Source: Macrostomum lignano
Lineage: Eukaryota
Length of the DNA stretch: 64,000 bases
Direction of reading: 5' to 3'
Assembly (NCBI GenBank): GCA_002269645.1
Contig: NIVC01000025.1
Coordinates: forward strand, 186,001-250,000
Under the pieces are notes generated by a model that worked only from the letters and a program-made list of their open reading frames with translations, made no database searches and was not told where the DNA came from. Position numbers and translations under genes: made by a program. Below, piece by piece: positions 1 to 20,545 of the stretch (position 1 is the stretch's first letter; each line of letters opens with the position of its first letter).

Positions 1-22
1 GGCTTGGCAACAAGCAATTTAG

Positions 23-900
23 TGTAGAAGGGCTTATGTTTATTCCTAGAAAATTAGTTTGTTTCCACGAAATTAAATTCCCGCCAAAATAATAAGTACC
101 GTATGATTTGTTTTAATTCGTAAATTTGTTTTACTGAATAATATTTTGTTTTAATGATGCGAATAATTTGTTTTAGCTATTCATTTGTTTTAATGTTAGA
201 TACGTAAGCCAATGAAACAAGACTCTAACTAGTATAAATACAAGGCCAAAATAAAACGAAACCTCAACCTTTTGGGTTCCTAATCAGTTAACAGGAAATT
301 AAGATTTCTTGGTTCTTCTGAATTAGTCCTTTGAAGCAGTATTGCAAACTAAGTTACCGTGTTGGATAGCAGAAAGTGTTTTGCCAGTACAGTGACAAGC
401 AGGGATTGCTGATCAAAGAGGGTGGAATACCCAGTAAAGAGGGTGGAATACCCAGTGTAAAGAGGGTGGAATACCCAGTACAAGGGTGGAATACCCAGTG
501 TAGAAAGGTTGGATTACCCAGGAAGGGAGAATTTTCAGGTTGCTCAGATAAGCGTGATGCAGTTCTAAGTCGTAAGAGACAGTACTAAAAGAAGCCGGAA
601 ACCCCTCGGTCTGTGGTAAACGCCGTGTTTGGACTGGATAATTTTAGGAATTTAGCAGTAGTCAGCAGTGTCTTGCCGCTCGGGCACTGAAGCTACCAAG
701 GGTAATTCGTAGCGACGATAGCCTATAACGTAAAAGTACATGTAAGTATAGAAATAGGATTCTTAGAAATAGCAAACTTAGCAGATTTAGTACAGTTCAG
801 TGATTAAACTTTAGAATTAAAATAGAGAGAGCCAGAAGGCCTGCAACAACTTGGTGACAAGTCGGTGGGATATTATAAACTAGCGAAGGGGCCTACAACA
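23..900 (+). repeat. 5' LTR (878 bp)
   Basis: TGTAGAAG...CTACAACA. Matches 11912-12789 except two substitutions seen by eye (67, 69). CCAAT 209-213, TATAAATA 233-240, four GAGGGTGGAATACCCAGT-type repeats about 418-500. Confidence 0.97.
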
Positions 901-903
901 ACT

Positions 904-914
904 TGGTGGCAGCG
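904..914 (+). promoter_or_regulatory. Primer-binding site complementary to tRNA-Leu 3' end
   Basis: TGGTGGCAGCG lies 3 nt after the LTR end and is the complement of the ...CGCUGCCACCA 3' end of eukaryotic tRNA-Leu(AAG/UAG). Confidence 0.85.
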
Positions 915-995
915 TAAAGGATCGAGGAACCGGCGAGAATCTAGTATAGTGTTTTAAGTAGTTAAAAGTACATTTCAAAAGTACATTCGGATAGG

Positions 996-1949
996 ATGGC
1001 TGCAGGAATTAATGATGCAATTGCACTTTTAGCTGAGGAGATTAGGAACAGATTAGAATTAGGACCATTAAGGCATGTGAAGATACAGAAGTTTACGCCT
1101 AGTCAGGATATTAGGATTTGGCTCACTGCTTTCGACCAGAGGTGCGAAGCAGAAGGAATAGAAGTAGAGCATAGGAAGACTGAGCTACTAGCTAACTTAG
1201 ATCTAGCGACAGCATTTGCTGCAGTGCAAAGGTTAAATTTGCCTGATGAACTAACTTACGAGGAGTTTAAGGAGCGCTTAGTAGAGAGGTTTGGTAGGAT
1301 AGGTAGTGCATCAGAATTTCGGGAGGAATTCCGTGGAAGAATGCAGGGTAGGAACGAGACTGCGGAAGCTTATGCCGACGCATTGATTGAGCTGTCCGCA
1401 AGAGCTTTCCCGAATATGAACGCTGAACAGCGTGAGGAAGAAGTTGTTGAACAGTTTATCAAGGGGGTGAGAATCCCAACAGACACTAGGGAGAAGCTAA
1501 TTTTCGCGCAGCCAGCTAATCTGCAGGAGGCTAGGAGAATGTTGCGTAGGATTGAAGCAGCGTGGCATATGTCACACAAAGGAGGTGTGAGAACTGTGAG
1601 GGAAGGAGAGGATGAGCAGCAGAAGTTGCAGGAGCTGGTGAGACAGCAGAAGGATGAGCTGGAACAGCAGCGGAAGAGAATTGAAGAGCTCATGGCGTAT
1701 AAGCCGCTGTACAAACCAGGGCCTCAGCCATGCCCAGCTCAGATGCCGCGTCAAGCATCTCAGCAGCAGTCGGCGTTTCAGCCACGACTTTCAAATATGT
1801 ATCGGCCCAGGCCAAGGAGTGAGTTTGTAGGCAAATCATTCGTGCCACAGCCAGGAAAGTGTGCAGTCTGCCAGAATCCGGGACCGATAAGGCCTGGTTT
1901 GGATCACCAGTGCCGCTTGTTCCGTAATCGAGGTAATCAGGGAAACTAG
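996..1949 (+). CDS. gag: Gag (retrotransposon capsid), 317 aa
   Basis: ATG ORF right after the PBS. Ty3/Gypsy capsid-like motifs (TYEEFKERLVERFG, RMQGRNETAEAYADALIEL, EQFIKG), a coiled-coil, and a degenerate Cys/His knuckle at the C-terminus. Confidence 0.92.
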   Translation: MAAGINDAIALLAEEIRNRLELGPLRHVKIQKFTPSQDIRIWLTAFDQRCEAEGIEVEHRKTELLANLDLATAFAAVQRLNLPDELTYEEFKERLVERFGRIGSASEFREEFRGRMQGRNETAEAYADALIELSARAFPNMNAEQREEEVVEQFIKGVRIPTDTREKLIFAQPANLQEARRMLRRIEAAWHMSHKGGVRTVREGEDEQQKLQELVRQQKDELEQQRKRIEELMAYKPLYKPGPQPCPAQMPRQASQQQSAFQPRLSNMYRPRPRSEFVGKSFVPQPGKCAVCQNPGPIRPGLDHQCRLFRNRGNQGN

Positions 1950-1985
1950 AGTTCGAGGGCCGAGAGACGAGGCCACGTCCCTCCA
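1940..1985 (+). promoter_or_regulatory. -1 programmed ribosomal frameshift signal (G GGA AAC plus downstream stem)
   Basis: Slippery heptamer 1940-1946 is in gag phase just before the gag TAG. The -1 frame is open from 1937 and continuous with pol. GAGGG...CCCTC stem begins about 8 nt downstream. Confidence 0.8.
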
Positions 1986-3896
1986 GAAAATTTAATTGCA
2001 AAGTGAAGGCCTCTAAGTGCGATTCTGAAGGTTGGCAAACTGTCCCCATTCGAAAGAGACATATGCGTGATGCAACTGTATATAATGCGTTTAATGCACC
2101 TGCGTCTGCACCATCTGTATTTTCTGCGTCTGCACCATCTGCGTCTGCACCATCTGCATCCGCCGCATCGCGATATGTCGTCCCTGCATCTGCTGTTGAC
2201 GAGTCAGCATCAGCCGATGAGCCCCGAGAAGAAGAAGAAGAATCTGCACCCGAAGCAAGCCAACCAAAGCCGAAAAAGGTAAGCAAGCGCAAAGTTTTTG
2301 TCAAATCTAAGGTAGAATTAGTGAATCATAAAAGTTATGAGGCAATAGTAGTAGGCGATATAGAAAAGCAGGAGGTAGACTTTTTACTAGACACGGGTGC
2401 TAGAAACAATTTCTTAAGCCGATCAGTGTGGTCAAAACTATTCGAACAAGATCAAATTAGGGAGACGAATAAGAGAGTTTCCACATTCGATGGAACGAGA
2501 GTTCAGTTAGATGGCGAAGTGCGTGCTGCAGTGAAATTCGGAGACTTTGAGATCGAAATTGATTTCCTACTATGTAGCCACGAGTGTGATAACATACTCG
2601 GAATGGAGTTTTTCCTAGAGCAGTGTGAGAGCATTCATCTAACAAAAGGCATGCTCATCTTGAAAGAAGGAACGTGTATTCCTATGCAATACACCCACCT
2701 TCCGGTAAAGGTTTGCCGAGTATATACGCAGGAGAAGGCAGTCATTCCGCCGAATAGTGCACTGCGAATCCCTGTGCGCCTAGCGAAAAATTCTGAAGCT
2801 AATTATGGAGCTCCGATGACAATTGAGACAATTGGAAATGGCGTGAGAGCAAGAGAAGAGACTCTGGAGATGAATCCAACTCTAGTGACTATGCGTGAAG
2901 GAGTAGCTATAGTGGAAGTCGTGAACTCGAGTCCAGTAGAAGTTAAATTGCCAAAATCATCGCTAGTAGGTTTAGCCAAGCCAATGAGAGCTAGAGAACT
3001 TACCTATCTGACTAGTGAGAAAAATCAATCAGAGCCAGTTACTGGACGAGTTAATCAGGCGCAATCTAATGACGAGTCTTGGATTAGCGAAATTAATATT
3101 AGCGAAAACTTAACTAAAGAGCAAAAGGAGAAAGTGATTCAGCTCGTGAGAGAGCACGGTGAAGCGTTTTCGCAGAATGAATTGGATATGGGTCTAACTC
3201 AGCTAGTGACGCATGAAATTTCATTAAAAGATGAGACACCTGTGAGGATCCCGACTAGAAGGATTCCCCCTCATCTTCAGAAGCAGGTAGATGCTCAGTT
3301 AGATGACATGCTAGCTAAGAACTTAATTAGACCATGTTACTCTACGTACTCAACACCCTTAGTGATTGTACCCAAGAAGGATGGTACTATTCGCATTGTG
3401 AGTGATTTCAGAGTACTAAATTCGAGAGTAAATTATTTCCCATATCCGTTGCCTAATATTCAGGAAACTTTCTCGCATTTGACGGGCAGTCAGTACTTTA
3501 GTAGACTTGACCTAAATTCTGGTTATTGGCAGGTTCCAATTAAGGAAGAGCATAAACACATGACTGCGTTTTCAACTTTAACTAGAGGGCAATTTGAGTA
3601 TCAGGTGATGGCGCAAGGTCTATCTAATGCGCCAGGCACTTTTCAAAGGCTCATGAATCTTGTATTGGCGGGCATTCAGCATAAATATGCCATGTCGTAC
3701 ATAGATGACATCGTGACCTATTCGAAGCAATTTGAGGAGCATTTAGAGCATTTGAAGGAAGTTTTTCAAAGACTTATTAATGCAGGACTAAAGTTGAGAG
3801 CTAAGAAATGTAATTTATTCCATAGTGAGCTAAAATACTTAGGCCATGTGATCGGGAGAGAAGGAATTAGGACCGACGAGACGAAAATAGAAGCTA
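1940..3896 (+). CDS. pol: Pol, 5' part: aspartic protease and reverse transcriptase (interrupted)
   Basis: Protease LLDTGA. RT motifs PLPNI, LDLNSGYWQV, GLSNAPGTFQRLM, YIDDI, YLGHVI. Interrupted after ...TKIEA by the Helitron. Confidence 0.95.
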
Positions 3897-5451
3897 CAAG
3901 CTGTTGAAACCCGCGGATTTTGAACCCGGGGAACTCCATTCCCCGGAATTATTTTTGCATGTATTCTGAAATCTGAGGTCAAACTCAAACAAAAACTTGT
4001 TAATAGTTAGGATGGAGTTAAACACAAAATAGAGTGCACATTCGTGTAAAATTAGCATTTAAAGCAAGCATTGATATTGTTGGCTGGGGTACTGCACAGA
4101 ATGTCAGGCAAACTCTGGCCTCTGCCTCCGCCTCTACCTATGTCCCTTGCATCCTTTGAAACTTCCATCTTCTTTTCTGTTTCCTATCTTCTCTCTCGGC
4201 TCTTCTCTCTCTCTCCTCTTATCTCTTCTTTCTTCTCTCCTCTGTCCTCTCTCCTCTCTCCCCTCTTCTCTCTATTCTTTTTTTCTCCTCTCCTCTCTTC
4301 TCTCTGGTCTCTCATATCTTCTTTCTCCTCTTTTATCTCTTCTCATTTCTCTCTGCTCTCTACTCTCTCTTCCCTCTCCCCTCTTCTCACTCCTTACTCT
4401 ACCCTCTCTCAACACTTCCCTCGTCTCTACTCTCTCCTTTTCCTCTCTTCTCTCAACTCTCATTTTTCCTCTCTTCTCTCAACTCTCTCCTCTCCTCTGT
4501 CCGCTCTCTGCTCTCATCTCTTCTATCGTCTCTTCCCTCACCTCCCTTCTCTCTCGTCTTTGCTCTCTTATCTCTCATATCTCTTCTTTTATCTTCTCTC
4601 TCTCTCTTATCTTTTCTCATTTCTATCTTCTCTCTCTCCCCCTCTCTCTCTCCTCTCATCTCTCTGCTCTCTCCTGTCCTATCTCTCTTCTCTCTAATCT
4701 CTTCCCTCTTTCCTCTCCTCTCTCGTCCCTTTCACCAGTTTCACTGTCCTCTAGATTCTCTCCATTCCCCTCCTCTCTCTTCACTCACTTCTCATATCTC
4801 CCCTGTCTCCACCTCTCATCTATTATTTCATATCTCTCCTCTTTTCTTTCTACTCTCCCATCTCTCGTCTGTTCACTCTCGTTTCTGCTCTCTCATCTCC
4901 CCTCTCTCATCTCTCATCTTTACTCTCATATGTTCCCTCACCTCTCTCTTGTACTCATCTCTTTCCCCTTTTTTGACTCAGGACTCTCTTTCCTTTCTTA
5001 TTTCTTCTCGTCTCTTCTCTTCTCTCTTCTATACTCTCCCTCTCTTGTCTTCTCTCTTCTGTCTCCACTCTCCTCTCTTCTCTCTTATATCGTCTGTTCA
5101 CTCTCATCTTTGCTCCCTCATTCCCCTCTCTCTTCTGTCATCTCTACTCTCCTCTCTACTGTGTACTCTTCTCTTCCCCTCTTCTGACTCCTCTCTTTCC
5201 TTACTCCTCTCTTCTCTTCCATCTTCTATACTCTCTCCCCTCTATTTTCTTCTCTCGTCTCTCTGCACTCTGCTCTCTCTTTCTTCATCTCTCATCTCTA
5301 CTCTCTCGATCATCTTTTCTTTCATCTCTCTCATCTCTACAATCTCATCTCTTTCCTCTCTCTTCCTCTTCCCTTTACTCTATCATCTCTCCTTTCTCCT
5401 CTCTTCTTTCTCAAATCTCTCTCTCTCTCTTATCTCTTATCTCATCTTCTC

Positions 5452-5540
<89 letters not shown>

Positions 5541-7022
5541 CTCTTATCTCATCTTCTCACTCCTCTCTCTCTCTCTCTCTCTCTCTCTCATCTACCTCTC
5601 TGTTCTCTCATCTCTTCTCACTCTTCTCTACTCTCCTCTCTCATCGATCATCTGTCTCATCTCTCGACTCTTCTCTCTCCATCTTCTCACCTCTACTATT
5701 TCCTCTCCCCTCTTCTCTCCTCTCGCTTCTTCGTCCCATATTCTCTGCTCTCTCCTCAACCCCCTCGTCTCTCCTGATATCTATCTTTTCTCTTATGCCC
5801 CTCTCGCCCCTCCTCCCTTTCTAATAGTCTATTCTTTTTCCTTTTCACTTTCATATGGCCCGCAGCCATGAGCTTGATTCTATATCTGGCCTTTGACGTA
5901 AAAAATCCGCCGATCCCTGCTTCGAAATCCAGTTTGTGGGATGTAGTACTATCATGGTTGTTATCATTTCTCACGCTTTAATCACGTCATCTTTCTGGCC
6001 AATTAGCAGCTCTGAGAGGAATTTGTGTATCTCCAGTTCCACCACCACAGTCTGCAGCAGTCTAACAACCAAGGAAATCCGCATTTTTAGGAGGCCATTT
6101 AAATTTTAAAGTACCTTATGCGAATCTTAATGTTAAAATTTTCATGGTGTAACTAATTTAGTAGGATTGCATTGTAATCAGTTAATTTTTCGCTATTTTT
6201 AAAAATGATCCCACATCGCCTTGATTTGCCATCCTTGTTTAACTGCTGCAGACTTGTCTATACAGAGGAGTGAGGACAGTGGTTGAATCTCTCGCTAAAG
6301 CTCCTCTGCACGCCTCTCTACTCGCGGGGGTACAGAGAAGGCTATTAAAAGTTATTCCAAAACACTGTACATTTGCTATGTACATTCAGCCCTATCGCCT
6401 GATCCTTCGGCTGGGCTGGGGGAATGAGTGAGTGAGTGGCACAAACACAGAAAAAGCAGACAAACTTCACACGCTTACAGTTTCTTTTCTGAATGAGTTA
6501 CAGAGTTGAAACTTTACATTTAGATAGAGAATGAGTCAATGAATAATTGTGTCAAGTTTAAAGTCAATCGCTTCACGTGGAGCAAACTTATGGCAGCTGA
6601 AAGTTAGTCGATTTTGAAACCCATTTTACACATCTGGGCCCAGATCGGAATCGGGAAAGAGAGGCAGGCGGGCGGAGGTTGGGGTGGTTGCTACGCTGAA
6701 AAAAAGCAGCCTAACTTTAAAAGTGCACAGCACCGCTCAGGATTAACTTTGAGACTCGAAATTTTACACGATTGTGCTAAAATAGTTTAAGATTGTCTGT
6801 GTCAAATTTGAAGAGAATCGGTAAAAGTGGAGCGGCGCTATGGAGGATTTAGTGAAAAAATCGCGCGTTTTAAGCAGTTTTTTGCACTTTTAGGTAGGAA
6901 GACTTGAGTCTAGGAAATTTAAAGGTAGCCTAAGACATTCTCCGTAGTAAGTTTAGGGTGGGTGTAAAGTTTGGTGTAATTTGGTTGAGCGGTTTGGGAG
7001 TCCATAGCGAAGTAATTTGTCC

Positions 7023-7055
<33 letters not shown>

Positions 7056-7078
7056 GTTTTGATTTTTATAGGTAGAGA
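3897..7078 (-). mobile_element. Non-autonomous Helitron (DINE/Lep1-like) inserted in RT, 3182 bp
   Basis: On the minus strand it starts TC(TCTACCTATAAA) then (TCTG)n, and ends with a GC hairpin about 12 nt before CTTG. Inserted between A and T with no TSD. Removal gives GCT ATT AAG AGT TGG (AIKSW) in frame. No RepHel ORF. Confidence 0.85.
4140..5825. repeat. 1.7-kb polypyrimidine (CT-rich) low-complexity tract inside the Helitron
   Basis: Almost purine-free + strand, with a near-perfect (CT)n core about 5455-5536. Confidence 0.95.
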
Positions 7079-10000
7079 TTAAGAGTTGGCCGAAGCCAAA
7101 GGAGGTGAAGGAATTACGAAGCTTTCTAGGATTATGTAACTATTATAGTCGCTTTGTCAAAAATTATGCCGAAGCCGCGCATCCCCTGTTTCAATTGACT
7201 CGGAAGGGAGTGCAAAATTTTCAAGCAAAATGGACTAAGGCTCACGATCAGGCATTTATGGAATTAAAAAATAGAATGATGTCAACAGAAGTTCTAGCCT
7301 ATCCAGAATTCGTAGACGATGAAAATGTTAAAATGGTTTTGGACACTGATGCTAGTGATGGACGCATAGGAGCCTGTTTAGGTCAAATCCAGTCAGATGG
7401 CATCGAGAGGCCTATAGCATATTTCAGTCGTACTATGAAGGAATCGGAGAAACGGTATCCTATTACTAGAAAAGAACTATTAGCTTTAGTAGATGCGATG
7501 AAGCATTTTAGATTTTATTTAATAGGGAAGCGATTTCTAGCGCGCACCGATCATAAAGCAATTCTGTGGTTATTAAGGCAGACAGAAGCTCAAGGAATTT
7601 TAGGTAGATGGATAGAACGGTTGAACGAATTCCAGTTTGATATAGAGCATAGGAGTGGGGCAAAACATTCTAACGCAGATAGTTTGTCCAGAAGGCCGGC
7701 AGAAACAGCCGGAGCAGTCAGTGAATCTGTGAACGAAGAAGGCGTGAGTGCCAGTAGAGAAGGCGTGAAAGCCAGTGAACCTGTGAACGAAGAAGGCGTG
7801 AGTGCCAGTAGAGAAGGCGTGAAAGCCAGTGAACCTGTGAACGAAGAAGGCGTGAGTGCCAGTAGAGAAGGCGTGAAAGCCAGTGAACCTGTGAATGGAG
7901 ATGGCGTGAGTGTCACGAAAGAAGGCGTGAAAGCCAGTGAATCTGTGAATGGCGTGAGTGCCATGAAAGAAGGCGTGAGAGCTGTGGAAAACCTTATTGA
8001 TGGAGAGATGCAGACTCCGCATCCCACTGATTCAGAATCTAGGATCGAGTCATTAATCTCGGGAGAGAAAGGTGTGAAGGGAACTGATGTGTCAGCACTG
8101 AGTTCTAGCGCTATGCAACTGAACCGAGACACTGATCCTGAACACATGAAGAATGATACGCCTAAAGTTGAAAAACTATTGACTGATTATTTGCCAGTAC
8201 CTTTGAAGAAGGAACAGATTATAAAAGCTCAGAGAGAGGACGCAGCAATTTGCACATTAGTCAAATGGAAGCAAGACAAGCTGTTAGTTCCCCCATCTCA
8301 AGAGAGCGTTTCACCAGAGTTAAAACAGTTGAGCAAGCATTTTGAGAATATGAAGCTAGAAAAAGAAATGCTCATTATTGAAGAAGATGAGAAATGGAAA
8401 GTTGTCTTGCCTAGATCCTTGGATAAGCTAGTTCTTAGCGATCTACATGATAGCCCACTAGCCGGACATTTAGGCAGAGATAAGACAATCCAGCGAGTCA
8501 AGGAGAGATTTTGGAGACCAGGCTTAGTGACTAAGGTAGAGAAATATGTGGCGGAGTGTATTCCGTGCCTAGAGAGCAAGAGAGGTCACAAGATTCAGGC
8601 GCCAGTACAGTCATTTCCAATTAGTGAACCGTTTCATAGATTGCATATAGACGTGATCGGGCCGATCTCAAAAGTAAGCAAGAGAGGGCACCAGTACGTT
8701 TTAACTATAGTGGACAGTAACACGCGATACCCGTTTGCTTTCCCAATGCGTAATCAGAAGGCAGACACGATTATCAAGTTATTACAAGAGAGAGTGTTCA
8801 GTGAGTATGGCCAGTGCCATTGGATCCACACGGACAATGGTAAAGCGTTTACTAGCAAGCAGTTTAATTCGTTCTGCGATTTGTATAATGTTAAGCACAC
8901 ATGCACGACCCCATACCCTGCCCAAAGTAATGGTTTGGTAGAGCGATTTAATAAACAAATTAAGTCAATTATTACTTGCTTAATAGAGAAAGACCATAGC
9001 GATTGGGATCTGCTAATCCCAGCAGCATTAGTAGCAGTCAGAACCAGTGTGAATCAGACCACCGGATATTCACCTCATTTTCTATTATTCGGAAGAGAAG
9101 CAGTTTTACCTATGGATAGTGAGCTTAGAGAGTCGAGTAATTACGCTAATTATCCAACGTATGTTGCCGAACATGCTAAGAGGCTGGAGAGTGCAAGGAA
9201 GCTCGTGAGAGAGAAGTACGAGAAGGTGCATAGCCATAGACAGGAAAGTTCAGAAAATCAGAAAAAGCCCAAAAATATCGCACTAGGAAGTTTAGTATTA
9301 ATCAATAATCCACAATTAGAGAACGAGGAGTCAAATAAGTTTCATAGGAAGAAGAGAGCAGCTTACAGAGTGCTGAAGCAGATTTCGGAAGTTGTCTTTA
9401 AAATTCAGAAGGAAGAAAATGGAGAATTAACAGGCAATAAACTAATAGTGCATAGAGACAACATGACAGTGGTACCGAACTCAGCCAGAGAGCCAATAGA
9501 CAAGGGAGGCCAGCCCAGTATGCCGACTGCAGAGCTTCAAGATAAGGGAAGCCAGGCGGCAGAGGCGAAACGCAAGGGAAGCCAGCCCAAGAAGAAGACA
9601 AAAGCTAGACCAACTAAGAAGCTATGTGAACAAGAAGAAGAGTCATCGTCAGATGAAGAAGACCAAATCAATTGGCAGTGCAAACTCCGTGATGGAAATG
9701 AATCTGTAAGAGGAAGCGATTTGGAGATTGGAGCAGAAGTAGAAGTTAGGGAAGAAGGAAGCGAAGATGAGAATCCACAGCGTGAGAGCTCAGAAGGGGA
9801 GATTGAGGAAGAAATCGAAGCAGAGAGTGAGGAAAGTGAGAAGGGTGAGGAATCAGAGCTTGAGCACGAGGGAGAGAGAGAAAGTGAGGAGAAGGTTGCA
9901 CGCGAGCACAGTGAGTCAAAGGAGGAGATATCGCATACCGAGCAGAGTGAGAGACAGGATGACGCAATACCAGCTAAAAGGTATAACACGCGCAGTCAGA

Positions 10001-10080
10001 CCAAGCCTCCAAACAGATGTCAGTGCTATCTGAAAAGGCTAATCTCTGTGTGGAGCTTATTAGAGGGACTAAAATTCTGA
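7079..10080 (+). CDS. pol: Pol, 3' part: RT thumb, RNase H, integrase with acidic tail
   Basis: ELRSFLGLCNYY. RNase H TDAS, RPIAYFSR, ELLAL, TDH, NADSLSR. Integrase HDSPLAGH...CIPC, HIDVIGP, HTDNG, ERFN, PHFLLFGRE. No chromodomain seen. Confidence 0.95.
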
Positions 10081-10159
10081 GTCAGGGAAGAATTGGTAGC
10101 AAGGGTAAGGCGCAAAGCAAGCAAACAAGTGGGAGTTCATTGGGTAAGGGAAGGAAATC

Positions 10160-10400
10160 AGAGCAGCCAATTAGAAGCCAGCTATTGGGAAGGCCAGGAG
10201 TGGTCAACTGGGAAATCAGGGCGGTCAGCCAATGAAAATTCAGCTTTTGATTAAATGGATTGAGGGGCAAATTAAAACAAACAACGCCTGGGGTGGGGTG
10301 CCACGCCTATATAAACAAACACCCAGAGGCGAGAGGAAGTCAATCATAGTCGTGTTGACAGCTAGTGACCGTTCTGGTAGTAATTAACCGTGTTGGATTG
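10160..10400 (+). promoter_or_regulatory. Putative internal Pol II promoter for ORF3
   Basis: CCAAT 10167 and 10229, inverted CCAAT 10184, GGGCGG 10219, GGGTGGGG 10291, TATATAAA 10308-10315, all about 100-250 nt upstream of ATG 10414. Confidence 0.55.
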
Positions 10401-10413
10401 AGATAACTCCGTA

Positions 10414-11505
10414 ATGGAAGATACGATTGACATAATGGCGGAAGACGATATTTTAGACAAAATTTTAGCTGACATTGAGGTAGGAAGTGTTGAGGAAATT
10501 GAAGGAAGTGCGAGTGCGAAGTCACCAGGAGACAACGCCGTGATGGCAGCGGGACCGGCAAAGACGTCAGGTGACAACGCCGTGATGGCAGCAACAATGA
10601 AGTCGCCAGGAGACGACACCGTGATGGCAGCAGCAGCGACGGTGAGGTCCGACAGCAATGCCGTGATGGTAGAAGATGAAGAGGACCGTCCGAACAAGCG
10701 GCTGAAGTCGGTAGTCATTAAGAGAACATCAACTGAGGCAGAAGGTGCGCAGTCGGCGAAGCGGCCTGCTCTAGGGAACCAGTCATTAGTTCCACATGAT
10801 CCAAGGGTCCGAGCGCAGCTGTTAAGCGACCAAGCTAACAGGCCAGTGCCTGTCATTCCGGCCATTATGAAGCGGCAACCACAGGGCGCCAAGAGCGCTA
10901 TATGTCTCGCCAGTCAGTACCGGCCGATTCAGCCGAAGCCACCGACAGTAGCCGGCGGGCGAGGACGGGCGACAGTAGCAGCATCGGCGACAGCCGGCCG
11001 TCGAGGGCCAGCAGCAGCAGCAATCGGCGGGCAGCCTGCGCCAAGGTTGACGACAGCGCCAGCGCCAGCGCCGACCACGATCCCGAAGCGGTCACAGGAT
11101 GCGGCAGCTTGCGGACCAGCCAGTGCCGCAGACCTCAGTCTAGGATCTGACTTCCCGGCCGTGCTCGACCGAATCCCGAGAGCTCAACATGATCAGTTGA
11201 AACGTTTTATTAAAATGCTTAAGGGACATTTGATGCGCATGGCGTATCTACGCACCGATCGGCCAACTCCATGTCGGTGCACACAGGCCAAACCAGTGTT
11301 GTGCCTGCTGGTGCAGCAGTTCGATCTGGAATCAAGAATCGCAGCCTGGCGCCGAGCCGTGCAATACGCGCTGCACGATCTGACGCAAGCTGGGCAAACA
11401 TTTCATCGACTATTGCTGCAAATCGAGATCCGCTGGATGGCGGACCAGCTCGGCTGGCCGTACCACGACCAACTGCCTGAGGAGTTCGAACTGGAACGCA
11501 ATTAA
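10414..11505 (+). CDS. Accessory ORF3 of the retrotransposon, 363 aa, unknown function (not env-like)
   Basis: Intact ATG-TAA ORF between pol and the 3' LTR. Acidic N-terminus, four 13-aa repeats, basic NLS-like patches, predicted helical C-terminal ~120 aa. No signal peptide or TM segment. Confidence 0.8.
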   Translation: MEDTIDIMAEDDILDKILADIEVGSVEEIEGSASAKSPGDNAVMAAGPAKTSGDNAVMAATMKSPGDDTVMAAAATVRSDSNAVMVEDEEDRPNKRLKSVVIKRTSTEAEGAQSAKRPALGNQSLVPHDPRVRAQLLSDQANRPVPVIPAIMKRQPQGAKSAICLASQYRPIQPKPPTVAGGRGRATVAASATAGRRGPAAAAIGGQPAPRLTTAPAPAPTTIPKRSQDAAACGPASAADLSLGSDFPAVLDRIPRAQHDQLKRFIKMLKGHLMRMAYLRTDRPTPCRCTQAKPVLCLLVQQFDLESRIAAWRRAVQYALHDLTQAGQTFHRLLLQIEIRWMADQLGWPYHDQLPEEFELERN

Positions 11506-11911
11506 GTACATCTTGTCTATTTGAACTAACTTTTGCATTTGAATTACTTTTATTACTAGGACAATACTTTTTCTCTTTTAAACCTTGCTTATTCTGTGTG
11601 AATTCCATGCCATCGCTACTTTGAATTTGCTTATTCTGTGTATAACAATGCTATTTTTCTTTGTGAACTTGCGTGAATTTTCTGTACTCATTCTTTGTGA
11701 AGTAGCTTTTATCTTCTGCATGCACAATTTTTATTTCTGGTGAACAATTTTTTGATGATTTAGTGCTTTTCAAATGTATATATATATCTTTTTGCGCAAT
11801 TACATTTATCAGTTCGTGCCATTACTACATTGCTCAGTTTTTGATGAATATGTATTGTTGTATTATTTTGTTCACTTAAAAATTCGCAAAATAATATTCA
11901 GGGAAGCCAAC

Positions 11912-12789
11912 TGTAGAAGGGCTTATGTTTATTCCTAGAAAATTAGTTTGTTTCCGCAAAATTAAATTCCCGCCAAAATAATAAGTACCGTATGATTTGT
12001 TTTAATTCGTAAATTTGTTTTACTGAATAATATTTTGTTTTAATGATGCGAATAATTTGTTTTAGCTATTCATTTGTTTTAATGTTAGATACGTAAGCCA
12101 ATGAAACAAGACTCTAACTAGTATAAATACAAGGCCAAAATAAAACGAAACCTCAACCTTTTGGGTTCCTAATCAGTTAACAGGAAATTAAGATTTCTTG
12201 GTTCTTCTGAATTAGTCCTTTGAAGCAGTATTGCAAACTAAGTTACCGTGTTGGATAGCAGAAAGTGTTTTGCCAGTACAGTGACAAGCAGGGATTGCTG
12301 ATCAAAGAGGGTGGAATACCCAGTAAAGAGGGTGGAATACCCAGTGTAAAGAGGGTGGAATACCCAGTACAAGGGTGGAATACCCAGTGTAGAAAGGTTG
12401 GATTACCCAGGAAGGGAGAATTTTCAGGTTGCTCAGATAAGCGTGATGCAGTTCTAAGTCGTAAGAGACAGTACTAAAAGAAGCCGGAAACCCCTCGGTC
12501 TGTGGTAAACGCCGTGTTTGGACTGGATAATTTTAGGAATTTAGCAGTAGTCAGCAGTGTCTTGCCGCTCGGGCACTGAAGCTACCAAGGGTAATTCGTA
12601 GCGACGATAGCCTATAACGTAAAAGTACATGTAAGTATAGAAATAGGATTCTTAGAAATAGCAAACTTAGCAGATTTAGTACAGTTCAGTGATTAAACTT
12701 TAGAATTAAAATAGAGAGAGCCAGAAGGCCTGCAACAACTTGGTGACAAGTCGGTGGGATATTATAAACTAGCGAAGGGGCCTACAACA
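11912..12789 (+). repeat. 3' LTR (878 bp)
   Basis: Copy of 23-900, preceded by a short purine-rich GGGAAG (weak PPT) and followed by the TTAG TSD. Confidence 0.97.
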
Positions 12790-15700
12790 TTAGCAATAGT
12801 CAGTTTGGGGTGGTTAAAATAGAACAGTAATTTGTTATCTATTGCATTGAGTTTGCATGTATACTCTAAATTCAAAAAAGCCAAAATGTAGCTCCACATT
12901 TACATAATCTATATACATATGCTTTGCCCAGTGTAAGGCACACCTGCTTATAGTTTACTATAGTCATAGATGTAAAACAAATATTAAACCAAGGTAACAA
13001 AAGTTATAACCTAATTTAGGTTTGAAAGTTGACAATTTAAACAAAATATTTTTTAAATAGGCCTAAGCCAAAGATAAGATAGGCGTAGAAACTAGTAAAT
13101 AAAAACGTTATAGGGCCTACATCTAGGCCTAGGCCTATGGCTAGAGTGTACTGTCACAATTTCAATTCCAACCACTGTCACAGTCACTGCAAGGCTAGGC
13201 CCTAGTCTACAACATACTTAATTAAAGTACTATAAATTTTGAAGTCCTGAGATAATTATTAATACAAAAATAAATAATAAAGCCGGTCAAGTGCGATAAA
13301 AGCAGTTCTTTTTAAAGCGCAATGTGACACGCAAGCTAAGATTTCTTGGCCTACGCTGACAGGTTTTAAATTCAGGCATCTGAAAAATAACAGTATTACA
13401 CTTCATGATACGTTTAAAACAGATTCTTCAACATACAAGCCAGAAATTCAAAAAAGTAAGTTGGCGTATTCGCACATGAAAATAATATTCAAGATATTTT
13501 GTTTTACAGACATACATTGAAGTTGTTATAACAGTCCGGCTATCAGGTCTAGTAAAAATTTTGAAACATTTTAAAGTTTAAATTCGCTGAAATCAACCTA
13601 AAGTAATAAAGAGAAGTAGGACCTTAAGTTGCACAGAATCTTAAATGAATGAATTTACCAGTTACAAATCTTATTTTATTGAAACTTTTACGGGATAGCG
13701 GAACGTTCGTATCATTTACTTTCTAAGAAATAAGTTGTTTTGGATTTGACGACAGACTACATGACATCATCAGGCATTTCATTTCCAAGGACTTAAGTCG
13801 TCCTTGTTCATTTCATGTACGTTCCTTTCCGCCGTTCACAGACCAATAGTCTCTGACATACTGAGACAGCATGTTTGATTAGAGAAATGGCAACTGTGAA
13901 TCACCTTTTTCTGTATCCTTCTTATTACTTATTATCCTAAGAGAGCACGAACTTTAAAAACTAGGTGCCGATCCAGAAAATTTTGAACGAGAGGGGGTGC
14001 AGATTATGAACATGATAATGTGTATTTTCCATATTAAAAAATCGAACTCAATGGAGGGCGCCCTGTGCGCCCCCCCCCCCCTAAATCCGCTACTGTCCAA
14101 AACTCAAGTCTTTTAGGCCTAAGGCCTGTAGTATTATAGTATATTAATAAGCCTACATGCCTACTGTTTCCTGTTCCTAGTAATTGGTAACTGGTCATTT
14201 CACCCCAAAAAACCATTTTGACCATGGTTGTTTGTTTTGCCCTCAGACTGTTTAATCCACTGACCATTTTGCCTCTAGGCTAATTTAGTCATAGACAAGG
14301 CCTAGTTTAGTGACTTAGCCAAGCTAGCCAAGGTTGCAACAATACAAAGCTTTGATTTAATTTTTTGTTACAAATTGTATCCCTTTTTGCTTTTTATTAT
14401 ATTTGGTTTTAACTTGCTTGTTTTACTTTGTAGTTGTAGCTTAGGCCTATTGCTTTTAGCTTTAATGTTACTTATGTGTGATATAGACCTAGGCCAATGT
14501 CAATAATATTCTTTAGGCCTAGGCTATGCCTAGTATATAGCCTAAGTGGCTAGGCCCTATAGCCCATAGGCTAGGCTAGGCATAGGTACAAAGAATACAA
14601 TCCACTTTAGTAATAGCCACTTTGGTAATTGCCATTTCAGTAAGTTAACAAAAAATGACCACTTTGATAACAAAGCAGATTTATGACTATCAATACTAGG
14701 CCTAGGCCCTACAATTGGTTTAATGATTACCATCTCAAATATTGTATTTTCATGTATGATAGTATAGTTTGATTTTCTAGTTAAACTATATTATAATTTC
14801 TTTAAACTTGTGTAATTATTTTATGATAAATTTGTAGGCAGATAAAATTAAGCTTTTCAAAGATATTTAAATTAAGTAATAAAAAAAAGTAGTAGATTTG
14901 ATAATTTTAACTTGATATTTACTAATAGTAGGCCCTAATACCAATATTCTTATGTAAATAATATTTGGTCAATTATATAATGTCTTAGTGCATGCATCTA
15001 ACTCATCTAGAAATTATAATAGATCAGTTAAAATACTTTTTAATAAACAAGTTAAACACATGCACATATGCATACGTTTTTTCATTTTTTTTAAAGTTTA
15101 TTTGCATATTCTTTTGGATTATATCAATTAAAATATATATATTATTCTTACTTGTTACCAAAATGGCTGTTACTAAAGTGGCTATTACCAAAGTAGACTG
15201 TTCCCTCTCTTCCCTAACTTCTCTAACTTCATTTACTTCCCTCTCTTCTCTCCTCTGCCTCTCTCTCATCTCTTCTCCTTTCCCATTTTTCTTTGCTCTT
15301 TTCTCTTTTTTATATTTTCTCTTATCCGATCTAACATAAAATAGAACACAATTGCCATAAGGCTCCATCATGTTAGTATAAAATTTAATATTCTGTTTGT
15401 ACACAAGATTTTAAGTTGCATTATATAAAAAAATTGTTGGCTTTTTGTATTTATTTTTTATTTATTTTATTAAACTATTTTCTTTAAAAAATAAAATGCA
15501 ATTCAGTACCCTAGGTGTGCACATTTAACAAAAATAAAAATAGCTGTATTATTAAATAGATTCTGTTTTTGGTTTGGATGTCTTTGTTGTTTGGCAAATT
15601 AAACCTAAGATCTCTAAAACTAAAATAAGCTTTATTTTACCAAGTAAACGAATTTACTTGTCTGTTCGTTTATATCTATTGCTGCCTTTTCTTCAAGTGC

Positions 15701-16066
15701 ACATACATGACATTCACATAGATAGAACAAATACCTCAAATAAAATAATTGCATTTTGGTCTATCAAAATATTCTGCTAAAATGAGTGCTTGTAGCATTA
15801 AAATATGCGCTGACAAAACGATTATCAAAATAATGGAAAAAGTAGAAATTTAGTCATGTACATGTTGAATTCTTGGCTTTGTCTGCCCCCCACCATTAAA
15901 TCCATGGCAATGCCCCTGCTTGAAATAAAACTTGTTTACTGTCAGTAATTAGTGATAAAATGATAAACATTTTGCAGATTTCATCAACAGTAAGCTCCGA
16001 GGCATTCCAGCGCCAATTCCAGCTGAGTCAATTGGCCAAGGATTTGTTGCTAAGTGCACAATCGGC

Positions 16067-16673
16067 ATGTCGTCAGTATTCCTCGAAAAAATCCCTCTAC
16101 CAGACTTCTCAACTTATGTATTGAGCAGCCTTACACTGTTAGGCGCGGCTGTTTATCACGTGCAGCGGCGCTATTTAGATTTGGCACTGCAGGCCCGCTT
16201 GCTAGTTGGTATGCTGCTACTGCTGGTTAGCGCTGACAGCAGCCAAAGGCTGCGCAGTCAGGTAGTTGAGCACCAACATCGGGAGCTGGTCTGTCCGGCT
16301 GTTGGCGCCAAGTTCGGCGTCTGTCCAGCGGCATCAAACGCCAATCTCACCTATCGCCTGTTGGTTAATGCCACGTCCGAGTCGCTATTTGACGAAGTTG
16401 TCACCGCATTAAATGAAGAGCCTTGGTGCTTTTGGACTGTGATTAATACGATCTACTGTCTGCTAGTGCTGCTGGGCAAGACTATACAAAATACAGTTTT
16501 TGGCGAGCTGCGCGTCATGGAGCAGGACCATATTAGGGACAAATTTTGGAACTTCGTGTTCTACAAGTTTATCTTTATATTCGGCATACTTAATGTGCAA
16601 TCGCTGTACCAGGTAAGCCCTGTTCTGTCTGTCTGGGTCTGTCTGTCTGTCTGGGTCTGTCTGTCTGTCTGAC

Positions 16674-16740
<67 letters not shown>

Positions 16741-16767
16741 CTGTCTGTCTCTCTGTCCATCTGTCTA

Positions 16768-16838
<71 letters not shown>

Positions 16839-16841
16839 GAC

Positions 16842-16904
<63 letters not shown>

Positions 16905-16931
16905 CTGTCTGTCTCTCTGTCCATCTGTCTA

Positions 16932-16976
<45 letters not shown>

Positions 16977-19900
16977 CTGTCTTTCCGTCTGTCTGTCTGT
17001 CTACCTTTCTGTCTGCGCTTGTCTGTCTTTCTGTCTGTCTCTGTACTCATTGGATACATCAGTGCATAATTTTTATAATAAAACCATTAGCAGCTTAAAC
17101 TAAACAGATCTATAGCGGTTAATTTTAGGTATATTAAATGCATATGAAAAGCATAGCATATGCAGCTGTTAATTGCTATATAGATAAACTCCATTCTGCC
17201 ATTATAACTAGTGCAGTGCAGCCCTAGCTAGACTAGTTATGCAAAACTCTTGCATTATTGTATAATCTACGTTAACGTGTTTGAACTTCTCACGGCTTCG
17301 TGATAAGTCAGTCGTGATAAACATTTTAGCTCAATATTATGTTGCTATATTAATATTGCATTATGGCTGGCTTGAAAAGCGATTTAATCTGTCAGCAGGA
17401 GGACCGCTGCAAGGTCATCTTAGTGAAATTTGCTTTGCAAGTCTACAATTTATAGTTATTGGAATAAACAGTGTGCCATACGATGACGTAATGACATGTT
17501 TTTACTTATGGGCTAGATATTTTTGTATAAACAATAGTGCAAAATCAAGGACCAGTGTACTTATTTCTTAGATAGATTACCTGGATAAGTATGAGATGAA
17601 GGGAGTTAGATTCCCTACAAAGTATGAGTTAAAGGTAGGTAGACTCCCTGCAAAAGTATGAGATGAAGGGAGGTAGATTCCCTGCAAAAGTACACAATGA
17701 AGGGAGTAGATTCCCTGCAAAAGTACACAATGAAGGGAGTTAGATTCCCTGAATAAGTATGAGATGAAGGGAGTTAGATTCCCTGAATAAGTATGAGATG
17801 AAGGGAGTTAGATTTCCTACAAAAGTATGAGTTGAAGTTAGGTAGATTCCCTGAAAAAATGAGATGAAGAGAGGTAGACTCTCTGCAAAAGTATGAGATG
17901 AAGGGAGATAGGTTCCTGCAAAAGCATGAGATGAAGGGTTAGATTCCATGAAAGTATGAAATGAAGGGAGGGATATTGTGTGTGAGAAAAGAAGTGTGTT
18001 TGAACAATAAATGTCATATAAATTATAGATGAGTTAGCTCATCAGCCCTAATATATTTCGCTATCTAAACAAACAGGTGCTGCTGTGGTCAGGCTGGTAC
18101 AGCATCCTTGGCTTCTTGCACCTGCTGACCCACCTGACCAAGGACCGGCTGGACTATTTAATGAACGCGGCAGTCAGCAAGCCGCCGTTGAAAATCCGTA
18201 TTAAAATGCTGACTCTGCTAGCCTGCGTGCTATCCGTATGCGCCTGTCTGTCCGGCCTCTCCGTGTACATCGGCCTGCACACGTCCGCTCACTTTATGCT
18301 TTTCATGCTGGCCGAACTGGCTATGCTGGCCGCATCCACCGGCCACGTCTGTGTCCGGTTTCTGCACCACCTGACTAGACAGGACTCGGCCTCTAATGCG
18401 CCTTCTTCATCGCCTCTCCGGTCCAGCTTCTCTTATCACATTGATCTGGGGTTCGATTGTGCCGCTATGCTGTTGGACGGCTGTCACAATTTGCATATGC
18501 TGCTATGGAGCAATTTCACTCTGTCCATTGCTAATCTGGTCATCTTTATGCAGCTCAGGTATCTTTATTATCAGCTGTGCGACCGTTGGTATAGGCATTT
18601 GAGGTGAGGCTTGCTTTTGCGCTTTGTGCGCTTTTCAAGGTTAATGGCTCCTTGTTCAGATCCTCAGTTGCTGGGCCAGCCTCCCAGATCCTCAGTTGCT
18701 CAGCCAGCCTCCCAGATCCTCAGTTGCTGAGCCAGCCTCCCAGATCCTCAGTTGCTGAGCCAGCCTCCCAGATCCTCAGTTGCTGGGTCAGCCTCCCAGA
18801 TCCTCAGTTGCTAGGCCAGCCTCCCAGATCCTCAGTTGCTGAGCCAGCCTCCCAGATCCTCAGTTGCTGGGTCAGCCTCCCAGATCCTCAGTTGCTAGGC
18901 CAGCCTCCCAGATCCTCAGTTGCTGAGCCAGCCTCCCAGATCCTCAGTTGCTGAGCCAGCCTCCCAGATCCTCAGTTGCTGGGCCAGCCTCCCAGATCCT
19001 CAGTTGCTGGGCCATTAGCCTCCCAGATCCTCAGTTGCTGGGTCCGCCTCCTCAGTTCGTCAGTTGCTGGGCCAGCCTCCCAGATCTTCAGTTGCTGGGC
19101 CAGCCTCCCAGATCCTCAGTTGCTGGGTCAGCCTTCTCAGTTCGTCAGTTGCTGGGCCAGCCTCCCAGATCCTCAGTTGCTGGGTCCGCCTCCTCAGTTC
19201 GTCAGTTGCTGGGCCAGCCTCCCAGATCCCCAGTTGCTGGGCCAGCCTCCCAGATCCTAATTTGCTGGGCCAGTCTTCCAGATCCTCAGTTACTGGGCCA
19301 GCCTCTCAGATCCTCAGTTGCTGGGCCAGTCTTCCAGATCCTCAGTTGCTGGGCCAGCCTCCCAGATCCTCAGTTGCTGGGCCAGTCTTCCAGATCCTCA
19401 GTTGCTGGGCCAGCCTCCCAGATCCTCAGTTGCTGGGCTATCCTCCTCAGTTCGTCAGTTGCTGGGCCAATACCATTCCAGATCCCAAATTTATTTTGAA
19501 TCGCTCTGGAAATAAAAGTCCTTTTGATGGGTTATTTTCGTCGGGTTGTCTCTGTCTTCTATTCAGCTCTTTATGTCGGTCTTGATCCTTCGAAGTGGGG
19601 AATTCAGAGTTCTTTTTTATCATGTTTTTATTATATCGAAGTTGCGCAGTCGAACTGCAAAACTGCAAAATATCTTTGACCAATACTAGCGTAAGGACAA
19701 TAAAGGTCAAGGTGAACTCCCTTTTCCCCTTCACTTCCAGGTACCGCCTAGTCCACCGCCTCATTAGCAGCGTGTGCAGCCCCTACACGGTCACTGACAG
19801 CTCGTCACAGCAGGAGCCGGAGCTTTGCCCGATCTGCTGGGACCCCCTGGCCGCTGGCAGCAGCCGCCTGCCCTGCCGGCACGCATTCCACTCCGATTGT

Positions 19901-20545
19901 CTGGGCCTCTGGCTCGAGCAGGAGCTGGCCTGTCCAACCTGTCGACGCCCAGTGTCGACGCCGGAGATGGCTAGCGGCGCCGCCGCCACCGCTGCCTCCG
20001 CAACGAGCTCCGCTGAGACGTCAAACGGAGCCACAGCCGGCAGTAGCATTTCCAACGGCGCAGCGGCTTCATCGGCTTCGACGGCAGCGCAAGCAGCGTC
20101 AGCGGTTGTCGCTTCCAGCTCCTTGTCGACTGCCACAGCGACAGCGGCATCGGCAGCGACAGTCTCATCGGCGTCGATGACGTCATCAAGCTCGGCGACG
20201 TCCCAGCGGCGACATCGCGACAAATCGATGGAGGCCCGACTGCGCGAACAGGCTGACGCTGTCAGGCAGATTTTCCCGCACGTGTCCAGCCTGGCCATTG
20301 TTGAGGATCTGCGCATCAGCGGCAGTCCGGACGCCACCATTGCCAACATTCTGGAGGGCCGAGTTGTCGGCTCGGCCGGGCCGCATGTGCCGCACGGTCC
20401 GCAGGATTTCTTCTCGGACGATTTCGGCAGCAACAGCGGCGACCAGTACGACGGCGGGCTGTCCGGGCTGGAGCAGCGGCGGCGCATGCTGGCCAGAGCG
20501 GCCAGGCGGGAGTACTTTAACTCGGCCGCTTCTTCGGCGAGATGA
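16067..20545 (+). CDS. AMFR: E3 ubiquitin ligase AMFR/gp78 orthologue (multi-TM, RING-H2, CUE, G2BR), 625 aa
   Basis: join(16067..16612,18077..18603,19741..20545), GT-AG introns in phases 0 and 2. N-terminal [35 protein letters not shown]...[33 protein letters not shown]...NILEGRV, G2BR-like LEQRRRML...ARREYFN. Confidence 0.92.
16624..17042. repeat. (TCTG)n microsatellite, AMFR intron 1
   Basis: Direct reading. Confidence 0.95.
17575..17970. repeat. ~30-bp minisatellite (AAGTATGAGATGAAGGGAGTTAGATTCCCTG), AMFR intron 1
   Basis: About 12 degenerate tandem units. Confidence 0.9.
18657..19470. repeat. 28-bp minisatellite (CCTCCCAGATCCTCAGTTGCTGGGCCAG), AMFR intron 2
   Basis: Tandem array. The same unit recurs at 32790-32817 and 61280-62075. 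Confidence 0.95.

Follow-up and report, generated by a model that had tools for sequence, protein, structure and literature searches.

What does a Ty3/gypsy retrotransposon encode at the envelope (env) position if not an envelope protein? The question is raised by a stretch of 64,000 nucleotides (nt) from the flatworm Macrostomum lignano (assembly GCA_002269645.1, contig NIVC01000025.1, positions 186,001 to 250,000 of the forward strand; hereafter the window, whose numbering is used throughout), in which a long terminal repeat (LTR) element carries a third open reading frame, ORF3, of 363 amino acids (aa). A preliminary description had suggested that ORF3 might be a transactivator or a suppressor of host silencing. 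In this work we find that ORF3 is a genuine non-envelope accessory gene under selection, representing an unnamed protein family, and we suggest, with a probability of roughly 35%, that it encodes a nuclear transactivator of the promoters of its own family, itself likely expressed from an internal promoter. Taken together, the three readings under which ORF3 would be a nuclear regulator (transactivation, anti-silencing and RNA export) make such a role probable. Coordinates are collected in Table 1.

Chance was rejected as the origin of ORF3, given that none of 1000 order-2 Markov simulations of ORF3 reached a frame as long, that synonymous changes are in excess among the variant differences, and that the C-terminal domain has been kept at approximately 30% identity; the remaining five frames over ORF3 hold 6-24 stops each, and the sense frame reported earlier at the env position was confirmed. 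Part of the stretch is contained in 18 of 24 listed sequencing runs (six studies, one organism label), none of them labelled as RNA; four runs were compared over 8000-12900. One contig of run X1, which we guess to be RNA, covers the whole of ORF3 (10293-11741) with 11 differences and no gaps; eight of these are synonymous, compared with 25-31% expected (binomial p 0.001-0.006), corresponding to a ratio of non-synonymous to synonymous differences (pN/pS) of 0.12-0.16. A second and more distant X1 piece, lying in the C-terminal domain (11244-11456), has 34 differences in 213 nt, again without gaps, and within ORF3 there is no insertion or deletion among the 12 of 55 listed and no joint among the six listed. 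Judged from these changes, purifying selection has acted on ORF3 in the single variant scored, in agreement with the deep conservation of its C-terminal domain, and the disruption or neutral evolution that the preliminary description had named as counting against a regulator was not seen in that variant. The pol differences listed (four synonymous, four not) are too few, and pre-selected, to be of use as a control.

Homologues were sought with HMMER among 1.84 billion protein representatives (E<=0.001), with an added profile search, and in a 5.8-billion collection. HMMER returned two matches and the profile search a third, all of them (P0001, P0002 and P0003) named Macrostomum lignano. P0001 contains at its own aa 280-392 a close, internally deleted copy of ORF3 within a Brix-domain gene model, and is likely an annotation chimera in which the Brix gene model absorbed an ORF3 copy. 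P0002 (349 aa, two loci) matched at E 6e-4 against the 1.84 billion proteins and at a pairwise E of 5e-13 with ORF3, and P0003 (90 aa), found by the profile search, carries the C-terminal domain. P0002 and P0003 align with the last 120 residues of ORF3 at approximately 30% identity and with 21 invariant columns, and the domain scores of P0002 and P0003 were each matched by 0 of 2000 shuffles. ORF3 and P0002 also present the same order of parts, namely an acidic helix, a basic K-K/R-x-K/R patch, an Ala/Pro-rich linker and the helical domain.

The compact helical Cys/His/Trp-containing C-terminus of the preliminary description survives in part. An AlphaFold2 model of the domain, built from the three-sequence alignment, is predicted to consist of six helices and no strands (predicted local distance difference test, pLDDT, 68.8 and predicted template modelling score 0.58 for the best model, with the other four at 46.9-56.9), and the two last Trp are conserved, but the Cys and His residues are not. 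None is found in the 21 invariant columns, codon 297 (Cys) is changed in one variant, and ORF3 is therefore not a zinc finger. An earlier model of ORF3 had reached a pLDDT of 51 and its fold search was uninformative. Sequence comparisons likewise place ORF3 in no named family: no Pfam family was found at E<=1, a full-length word search gave no match at E<=1 among 8000 candidates, none of the three proteins compared with PHROGs matched, and the best hit in a PDB sequence search had an E of 0.14. ESM Atlas returned unnamed fungal clusters for ORF3 (0.90-0.91, with 112-124 of 256 features in common, which is the range of chance) and nothing usable for P0002, and no related locus was found in the metagenome contigs or the viral contigs searched. 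A GDSL or DEDDy enzyme was rejected on the absence of any Pfam family and of strands in the model; no host-gene family was matched either, so that the confident match to a captured host-gene fragment against which the preliminary description had warned did not appear.

In the N-terminal half, the acidic amphipathic start, the basic patches and the GGRGR motif described earlier were all recovered. Residues 1-30 have a net charge of -11 and include the helix DDILDKILADIEV, which fits both activation-domain and export-signal patterns. Residues 35-243 contain few order-promoting residues and residues 244-335 are net basic (15 K/R, 7 D/E); import- and export-signal patterns were matched by regular expressions, such patterns being common. 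In overall layout, a single folded domain of ORF3 is joined to a long flexible arm that ends in an acidic helix. The four repeats reported as units of 39 bp (13 aa) with the peptide KSPGDNAVMAA are present, but their lengths vary between 39 and 42 nt, the peptide occurs exactly only once, and what remains constant is the DNA 9-mer CCGTGATGG. Every repeat core holds an in-frame ATG (10543, 10585, 10624 and 10666) with a purine at -3 and G at +4, and these could initiate ORF3 forms without the acidic helix.

Two features that the preliminary description did not include, and which are new observations here, bear on how ORF3 might act. The first is the promoter-like spacer that separates pol from ORF3. 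Its five CCAAT boxes were equalled in only 3 of 2000 simulations, there is no ATG between its TATA box and 10414, and it has AGCCAATGAAA and ACCGTGTTGGAT (10387-10398) in common with the LTR. In total, spacer and LTR share five 10-mers (10 of 2000 simulations reach five), and their longest common word is 12 nt (44 of 2000). A reading by eye found in the spacer no trans-splice acceptor of the form [T/C]TNCAG (motif from PMC8629364). X1 is sparse over the integrase core and denser from 9476 on, but contig depth cannot rank genes and was not used; the contig ends at 10293 and 10300, both 5' of the TATA box, do not indicate a transcription start, and no LTR-to-ORF3 joint is among the six listed. 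The promoter signals of the spacer suggest that an internal promoter likely drives a separate transcript of ORF3.

The second feature is the motif CCGTG(A/T)TGG, which is found both in the LTR and in the leader of ORF3 and forms the unvarying core of each of the four coding repeats, the core of ACCGTGTTGGAT being one base off that of the repeats. All eight matches to CCGTGWTGG in the 64-kb window fall within the element and on its + strand (0.46 expected; 0 of 100 shuffles reach eight), and near-copies are found at 623, at 10369 and around the ORF3 start codon. As a separate observation, a segment of the acidic pol tail (9682-9697) is almost a second copy of the sequence that surrounds the ORF3 start codon at 10404-10419 (AACTCCGTRATGGAA).

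Spacer and shared motif favour a regulator, if circumstantially, and for a transactivator the parts would combine as follows. Host factors would supply the basal activity of the CCAAT/GC/TATA internal promoter, and the basic patch would carry the ORF3 protein into the nucleus. There the helical C-terminal domain would recognise CCGTG(A/T)TGG, directly or via a host partner, with candidate sites located just 3' of the LTR TATA box and in the same-strand cluster around the ORF3 start, while the acidic N-terminal helix would recruit coactivators. The outcome would be positive feedback on the internal promoter and activation of the LTR in trans, including that of broken copies such as the present one. 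The four coding repeats would mainly represent an expanded array of DNA sites.

The closest functional parallel is offered by foamy viruses, in which an internal promoter drives Tas (Bel1), a protein with an acidic activation domain that binds both the LTR and the internal promoter (PMC7390438). ORF3 resembles this system in having a candidate second promoter in the 3' half for an accessory gene, an acidic region and, as proposed, feedback on both promoters. The foamy virus, unlike the ORF3 element, is a spumaretrovirus with env and has its promoter inside env, and Tas combines an N-terminal DNA-binding with a C-terminal activation domain, the reverse of ORF3 (PMC7390438); no sequence or fold link between the two was found, and the activity of Tas is proven, that of ORF3 proposed. 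That the ORF3 element is not a spumaretroviral genome with env is indicated by its reverse transcriptase (RT), nearest to an RT/RNase H chain and to Ty3-G, and by its having no env. ORF3 would work like the foamy internal promoter and Tas, with a motif array that recalls VANC targets, while being a member of neither family. Whether an envelope-less flatworm Ty3/gypsy lineage could independently have evolved a foamy-like two-promoter switch, with a transactivator of new fold and a motif placed both in the LTR and as a tandem array in its own coding sequence, is a more specific proposal that we put forward tentatively and regard as somewhat doubtful. Under this proposal, short ORF3 forms from the repeat ATGs, having no activation helix, could in addition damp the loop.

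Several points weigh against a transactivator. The motif was chosen post hoc and its eight matches amount to four independent sites, and less biased tests were therefore run. When words were ranked with the second LTR omitted and with both the insertion and the additional copies of the repeat masked, CGTGATGGA, a word that overlaps the motif, came first of 7859 (9 seen, 0.79 expected, p 1.8e-6, approximately 0.014 when corrected), but CCGTGTTGG alone ranked 9th (p 6e-4) and was not significant once corrected. Four of the nine CGTGATGGA matches (553, 2066, 2894 and 7354) lie outside both TATA-proximal clusters, and the comparison of the LTR with the ORF3 5' region was equalled by 2 of 73 control segments and 15 of 500 simulated LTRs. 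The motif could also be a site for a host factor or mere ATG context, and as a shared regulatory site it is suggestive, not proven. The signal of selection comes from one de Bruijn contig, perhaps a mosaic, whose 11 differences were assigned by depth matching among the 40 of 475 entries listed. Likeness to P0002 is weak in the N-terminal half, the number of 2000 shuffles reaching the score being 171 for the acidic helix, 453 for the basic patch, 41 for the pre-domain linker and 151 for the whole half; the helix at aa 11-23 fits an export signal as well. The structural check proposed earlier for the C-terminal domain provided a helical model but neither a Foldseek match at E<=0.001 in PDB or BFVD nor a known DNA-binding fold, and the top structural Z among 48,161 chains, 7.5 for a tethering-complex bundle (rmsd 4.1, 106 residues aligned), is helical-bundle background. 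A fold with no structural match is not thereby shown to be new.

The same motif could instead be bound by ORF3 as a sequence-specific, VANC-like anti-silencing factor that removes or blocks repressive chromatin, which we consider unlikely. VANC21 binds a 9-mer densely arrayed in one orientation (PMC5735166), and ORF3 shares with the VANC proteins of VANDAL the status of an element-encoded accessory gene and, as a candidate resemblance, a 9-nt motif in dense, same-strand, tandem-expanded arrays within the element; in the ORF3 element this array is statistically modest and partly coding. The motif contains CpG, the observed/expected CpG ratio is 1.04 in ORF3 versus 0.65-0.88 in gag and pol, and C>T and G>A are the most frequent changes among the variants listed, although the CpG level may merely mirror Ala/Pro/Arg codons. 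Low-level methylation exists in M. lignano (PMC10658182), but its very lowness tells against the idea. VANC, furthermore, belongs to a plant DNA transposon, acts through loss of DNA methylation and has motifs that are mainly non-coding (PMC5735166), whereas four copies in ORF3 are coding; no homology to it was found, nor any similarity of ORF3 to a Pfam family.

A role in RNA export, to which we also assign a low probability, would make the motif an RNA site in both leaders, bound by ORF3 as a Rev- or CERV-like adaptor that exports or stabilises unspliced genomic RNA. The strand specificity of the motif and its position 3' of both TATA boxes would fit such a role, as would the GGRGR motif, the basic import signal and two patterns resembling export signals, one at aa 14-23 and one at aa 330-339; the second of these occurs in P0002 too but is located within a predicted helix of the folded domain. 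The two leader regions have no common hairpin, and the ORF3 leader carries the motif although its transcript would need no special export. CERV of the Caenorhabditis elegans element Cer1 provides a gypsy precedent: it too is an orphan accessory product of an LTR retrotransposon from an animal and has candidate signals for import and export (PMC10309623). Unlike ORF3, it is produced from a spliced mRNA with gag exons, has three folded domains and a Cys-rich loop, and acts in RNA export (PMC10309623); ORF3 forms a gene of its own on the 3' side, with a single folded domain and no invariant Cys.

It is similarly unlikely that ORF3 is a captured, lineage-specific host gene that brought its promoter along, with P0002 as host paralogue and a role unrelated to transcription of the element, or a recent acquisition. 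The GC content of ORF3 (0.57, versus 0.43-0.49 in gag and pol) and its complete gene layout with promoter and untranslated region (UTR) would be explained in this way, and a transcript-based annotation (PMC5730564) lists P0002 and P0003 as separate hypothetical genes. Against capture, no relative is named from another species in either protein collection, the layout is single-exon, and spacer and leader share words with the LTR; the deleted close copy in the unrelated Brix gene model is what scattered mobile copies would be expected to leave.

A cytoplasmic or particle-associated adaptor, using the helical bundle for trafficking, germline entry or the blocking of a host restriction or piRNA factor, appears improbable. 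In the structural comparison, the highest-ranking entries are tethering-protein bundles of helices (Dsl1 complex, Munc13, Vps54; Z 7.5-7.4, Foldseek E 0.9), with scores that are background for this class of fold, and the invariant Trp/Tyr/Pro tail resembles a protein-binding surface; an import-like basic patch is nevertheless found in both full-length homologues, and the motif shared with the LTR would be left unexplained. Least probable by far, and largely refuted, is a degenerate env, small fusogen or neutral open frame, which has the env position in its favour but is contradicted by a highest 19-residue Kyte-Doolittle mean of 0.8 with no transmembrane-like segment, no furin-type R-x-K/R-R site, an acidic start, no env match, the synonymous excess, the absence of gaps in the ORF3-overlapping pieces listed and the conserved domain. 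The earlier statement that ORF3 has no signal peptide, transmembrane segment or furin pattern is borne out by the same features, with no dedicated signal-peptide prediction made.

Extra non-env ORFs in such elements are less rare than the preliminary description stated (PMC5408684, PMC7264820, PMC10309623). Grande gene23 and other additional ORFs of plant elements similarly lie between pol and the 3' LTR with their own upstream promoter and, for Grande, a nuclear product, but gene23 is antisense and from maize, and no LTR-shared motif is described in the parts of that paper covered (PMC7264820). The Oikopleura elements Tor3b and Tor4b are animal LTR elements with a third gene under an internal promoter, which in Tor4b is placed in the space after pol; that gene encodes a membrane glycoprotein (env), unlike ORF3 (PMC4402516). 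Bdelloid rotifer LTR elements carry sense non-env ORF3s, which are GDSL esterases or DEDDy nucleases (PMC5408684), whereas the domain predicted for the present ORF3 is all-helical and matched no enzyme. In the covered part of a survey of M. lignano LTR elements (PMC12801592) extra ORFs are unmentioned and 'ORF' occurs 0 times in the main text, and four motifs sought in its file 5, restricted to heat-shock-element families, were not found. The Mlig gene identifiers of the three homologues are absent from the paper texts and supplements searched, and no description of the ORF3 family was found in the literature searched, a scope that did not extend to the 2020 M. lignano LTR classification or to the large PMC5730564 supplement.

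Transcriptional regulators encoded by the element itself typify complex retroviruses and a few plant DNA transposons, and no proven example in a gypsy retrotransposon was found in the literature searched. Should ORF3 indeed activate the family to which it belongs, it would follow that a retrotransposon can bring an on-switch of its own and that complex retroelements arose from simple ones more than once. For M. lignano, transgenesis is established and an LTR-reporter assay has been published (PMC12801592), so that the idea can be tested directly, with a candidate site already named. Whatever its mechanism, ORF3 stands for a protein family that has no name, is under selection and contains a helical domain for which no match was found.

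Table 1. Features of the ORF3 element, in window coordinates.
Feature	Position	Strand	Details
Target duplication	19-22 and 12790-12793		TTAG, 4 nt; flanks element
5' LTR	23..900	+	TG...CA, 878 nt; CCAAT 209, TATA 233, motif ACCGTGTTGGAT 356-367, variant motif 622-631
Primer-binding site	904..914	+	TGGTGGCAGCG
gag	996..1949	+	317 aa; Retrotrans_gag match weak, E 0.0012, under curated cut-off
Heptamer	1940-1946	+	GGGAAAC; pol in -1 frame
pol 5' part	1940..3896	+	protease and reverse transcriptase
Nested insertion	3897..7078	-	3182 nt, within pol; starts TC, (CTGT)n near TC end, CT-rich core, ends CTTG
pol 3' part	7079..10080	+	RT connection, RNase H, integrase (H2C2, rve), long acidic tail; one motif copy at 9687
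Promoter-like spacer	10081..10413	+	333 nt; CCAAT 10167, 10229; reverse CCAAT 10092, 10139, 10184; GC box 10291; TATATAA 10308
ORF3	10414..11505	+	ATG start, 363 aa; gag/pol strand, between pol stop (10080) and 3' LTR (11912)
Acidic amphipathic helix	10444..10482	+	aa 11-23; DDILDKILADIEV
Four imperfect repeats	10519..10683	+	42/39/42/42 nt (14/13/14/14 aa); invariant CCGTGATGG at 10538, 10580, 10619, 10661
Basic patch	10693..10767	+	aa 94-118, NKRLK (aa 94-98) to AKRP; predicted nuclear-import signal
Conserved C-terminal domain	11143..11502	+	aa 244-363; predicted helical bundle; LLxxExRW...GWPY...LP invariant in 3/3 aligned sequences
3' UTR	11506..11911	+	406 nt, 45% T; short purine tract at end, then LTR
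3' LTR	11912..12789	+	

The host element is a Ty3/gypsy LTR retrotransposon with a TG...CA LTR pair, target duplication, primer-binding site and purine tract all present, and the Ty3/gypsy gene order was confirmed as gag followed by protease, RT, RNase H and integrase. The nearest solved structures to its RT are 4ol8 (RT/RNase H, E 1.8e-41) and the Ty3-G Gag-Pol 7q5b (E 1.4e-40), with bit scores of 145 for the top RT/RNase H chain, 142 for Ty3-G and at most 88 for the next retroviral-type chains. The RT motif GYWQVP is reminiscent of Osvaldo-type elements, and the primer-binding site is presumably of tRNA-Leu type. The T-rich 3' UTR of about 400 nt in the preliminary description was recovered. 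Its intact ORF in a very young Gypsy element holds for the frame and for the age, the two LTRs being identical at all but 2 of 878 nt. It does not hold for the element as a whole, since pol is broken by the nested insertion and the copy is therefore young but not autonomous. We take this insertion from its hallmarks to be Helitron-like, and because the LTRs of its host differ at only two sites its movement was likely very recent. Apart from one of low complexity, the insertion contains no long ORF, and its terminal 18-mer is found once in the window.

No canonical heat-shock element was found in the element, and an Rfam scan of window positions 1-13000 returned no families. The LTR contains a minisatellite of 21-23-nt units at 415-522, in which most of the variant insertions and deletions listed fall, and its end (835-875, and 12724-12764 in the 3' LTR) holds an imperfect older copy of the LTR end followed by a stretch resembling a primer-binding site, as if the LTR had been enlarged by absorbing an older primer-binding site. 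Between RNase H and integrase, an in-frame array of 54-nt units is repeated 4.3 times at 7719-7949, and after the integrase pol ends in a tail of approximately 200 aa (9480-10080), basic and then very acidic, in which run X15 has several internal deletions. Approximately 3.2 kb past the 3' LTR and on the same strand begins a gene (15959-20545) with hydrophobic exons and RING and CUE domains, which we presume to be AMFR/gp78-like.
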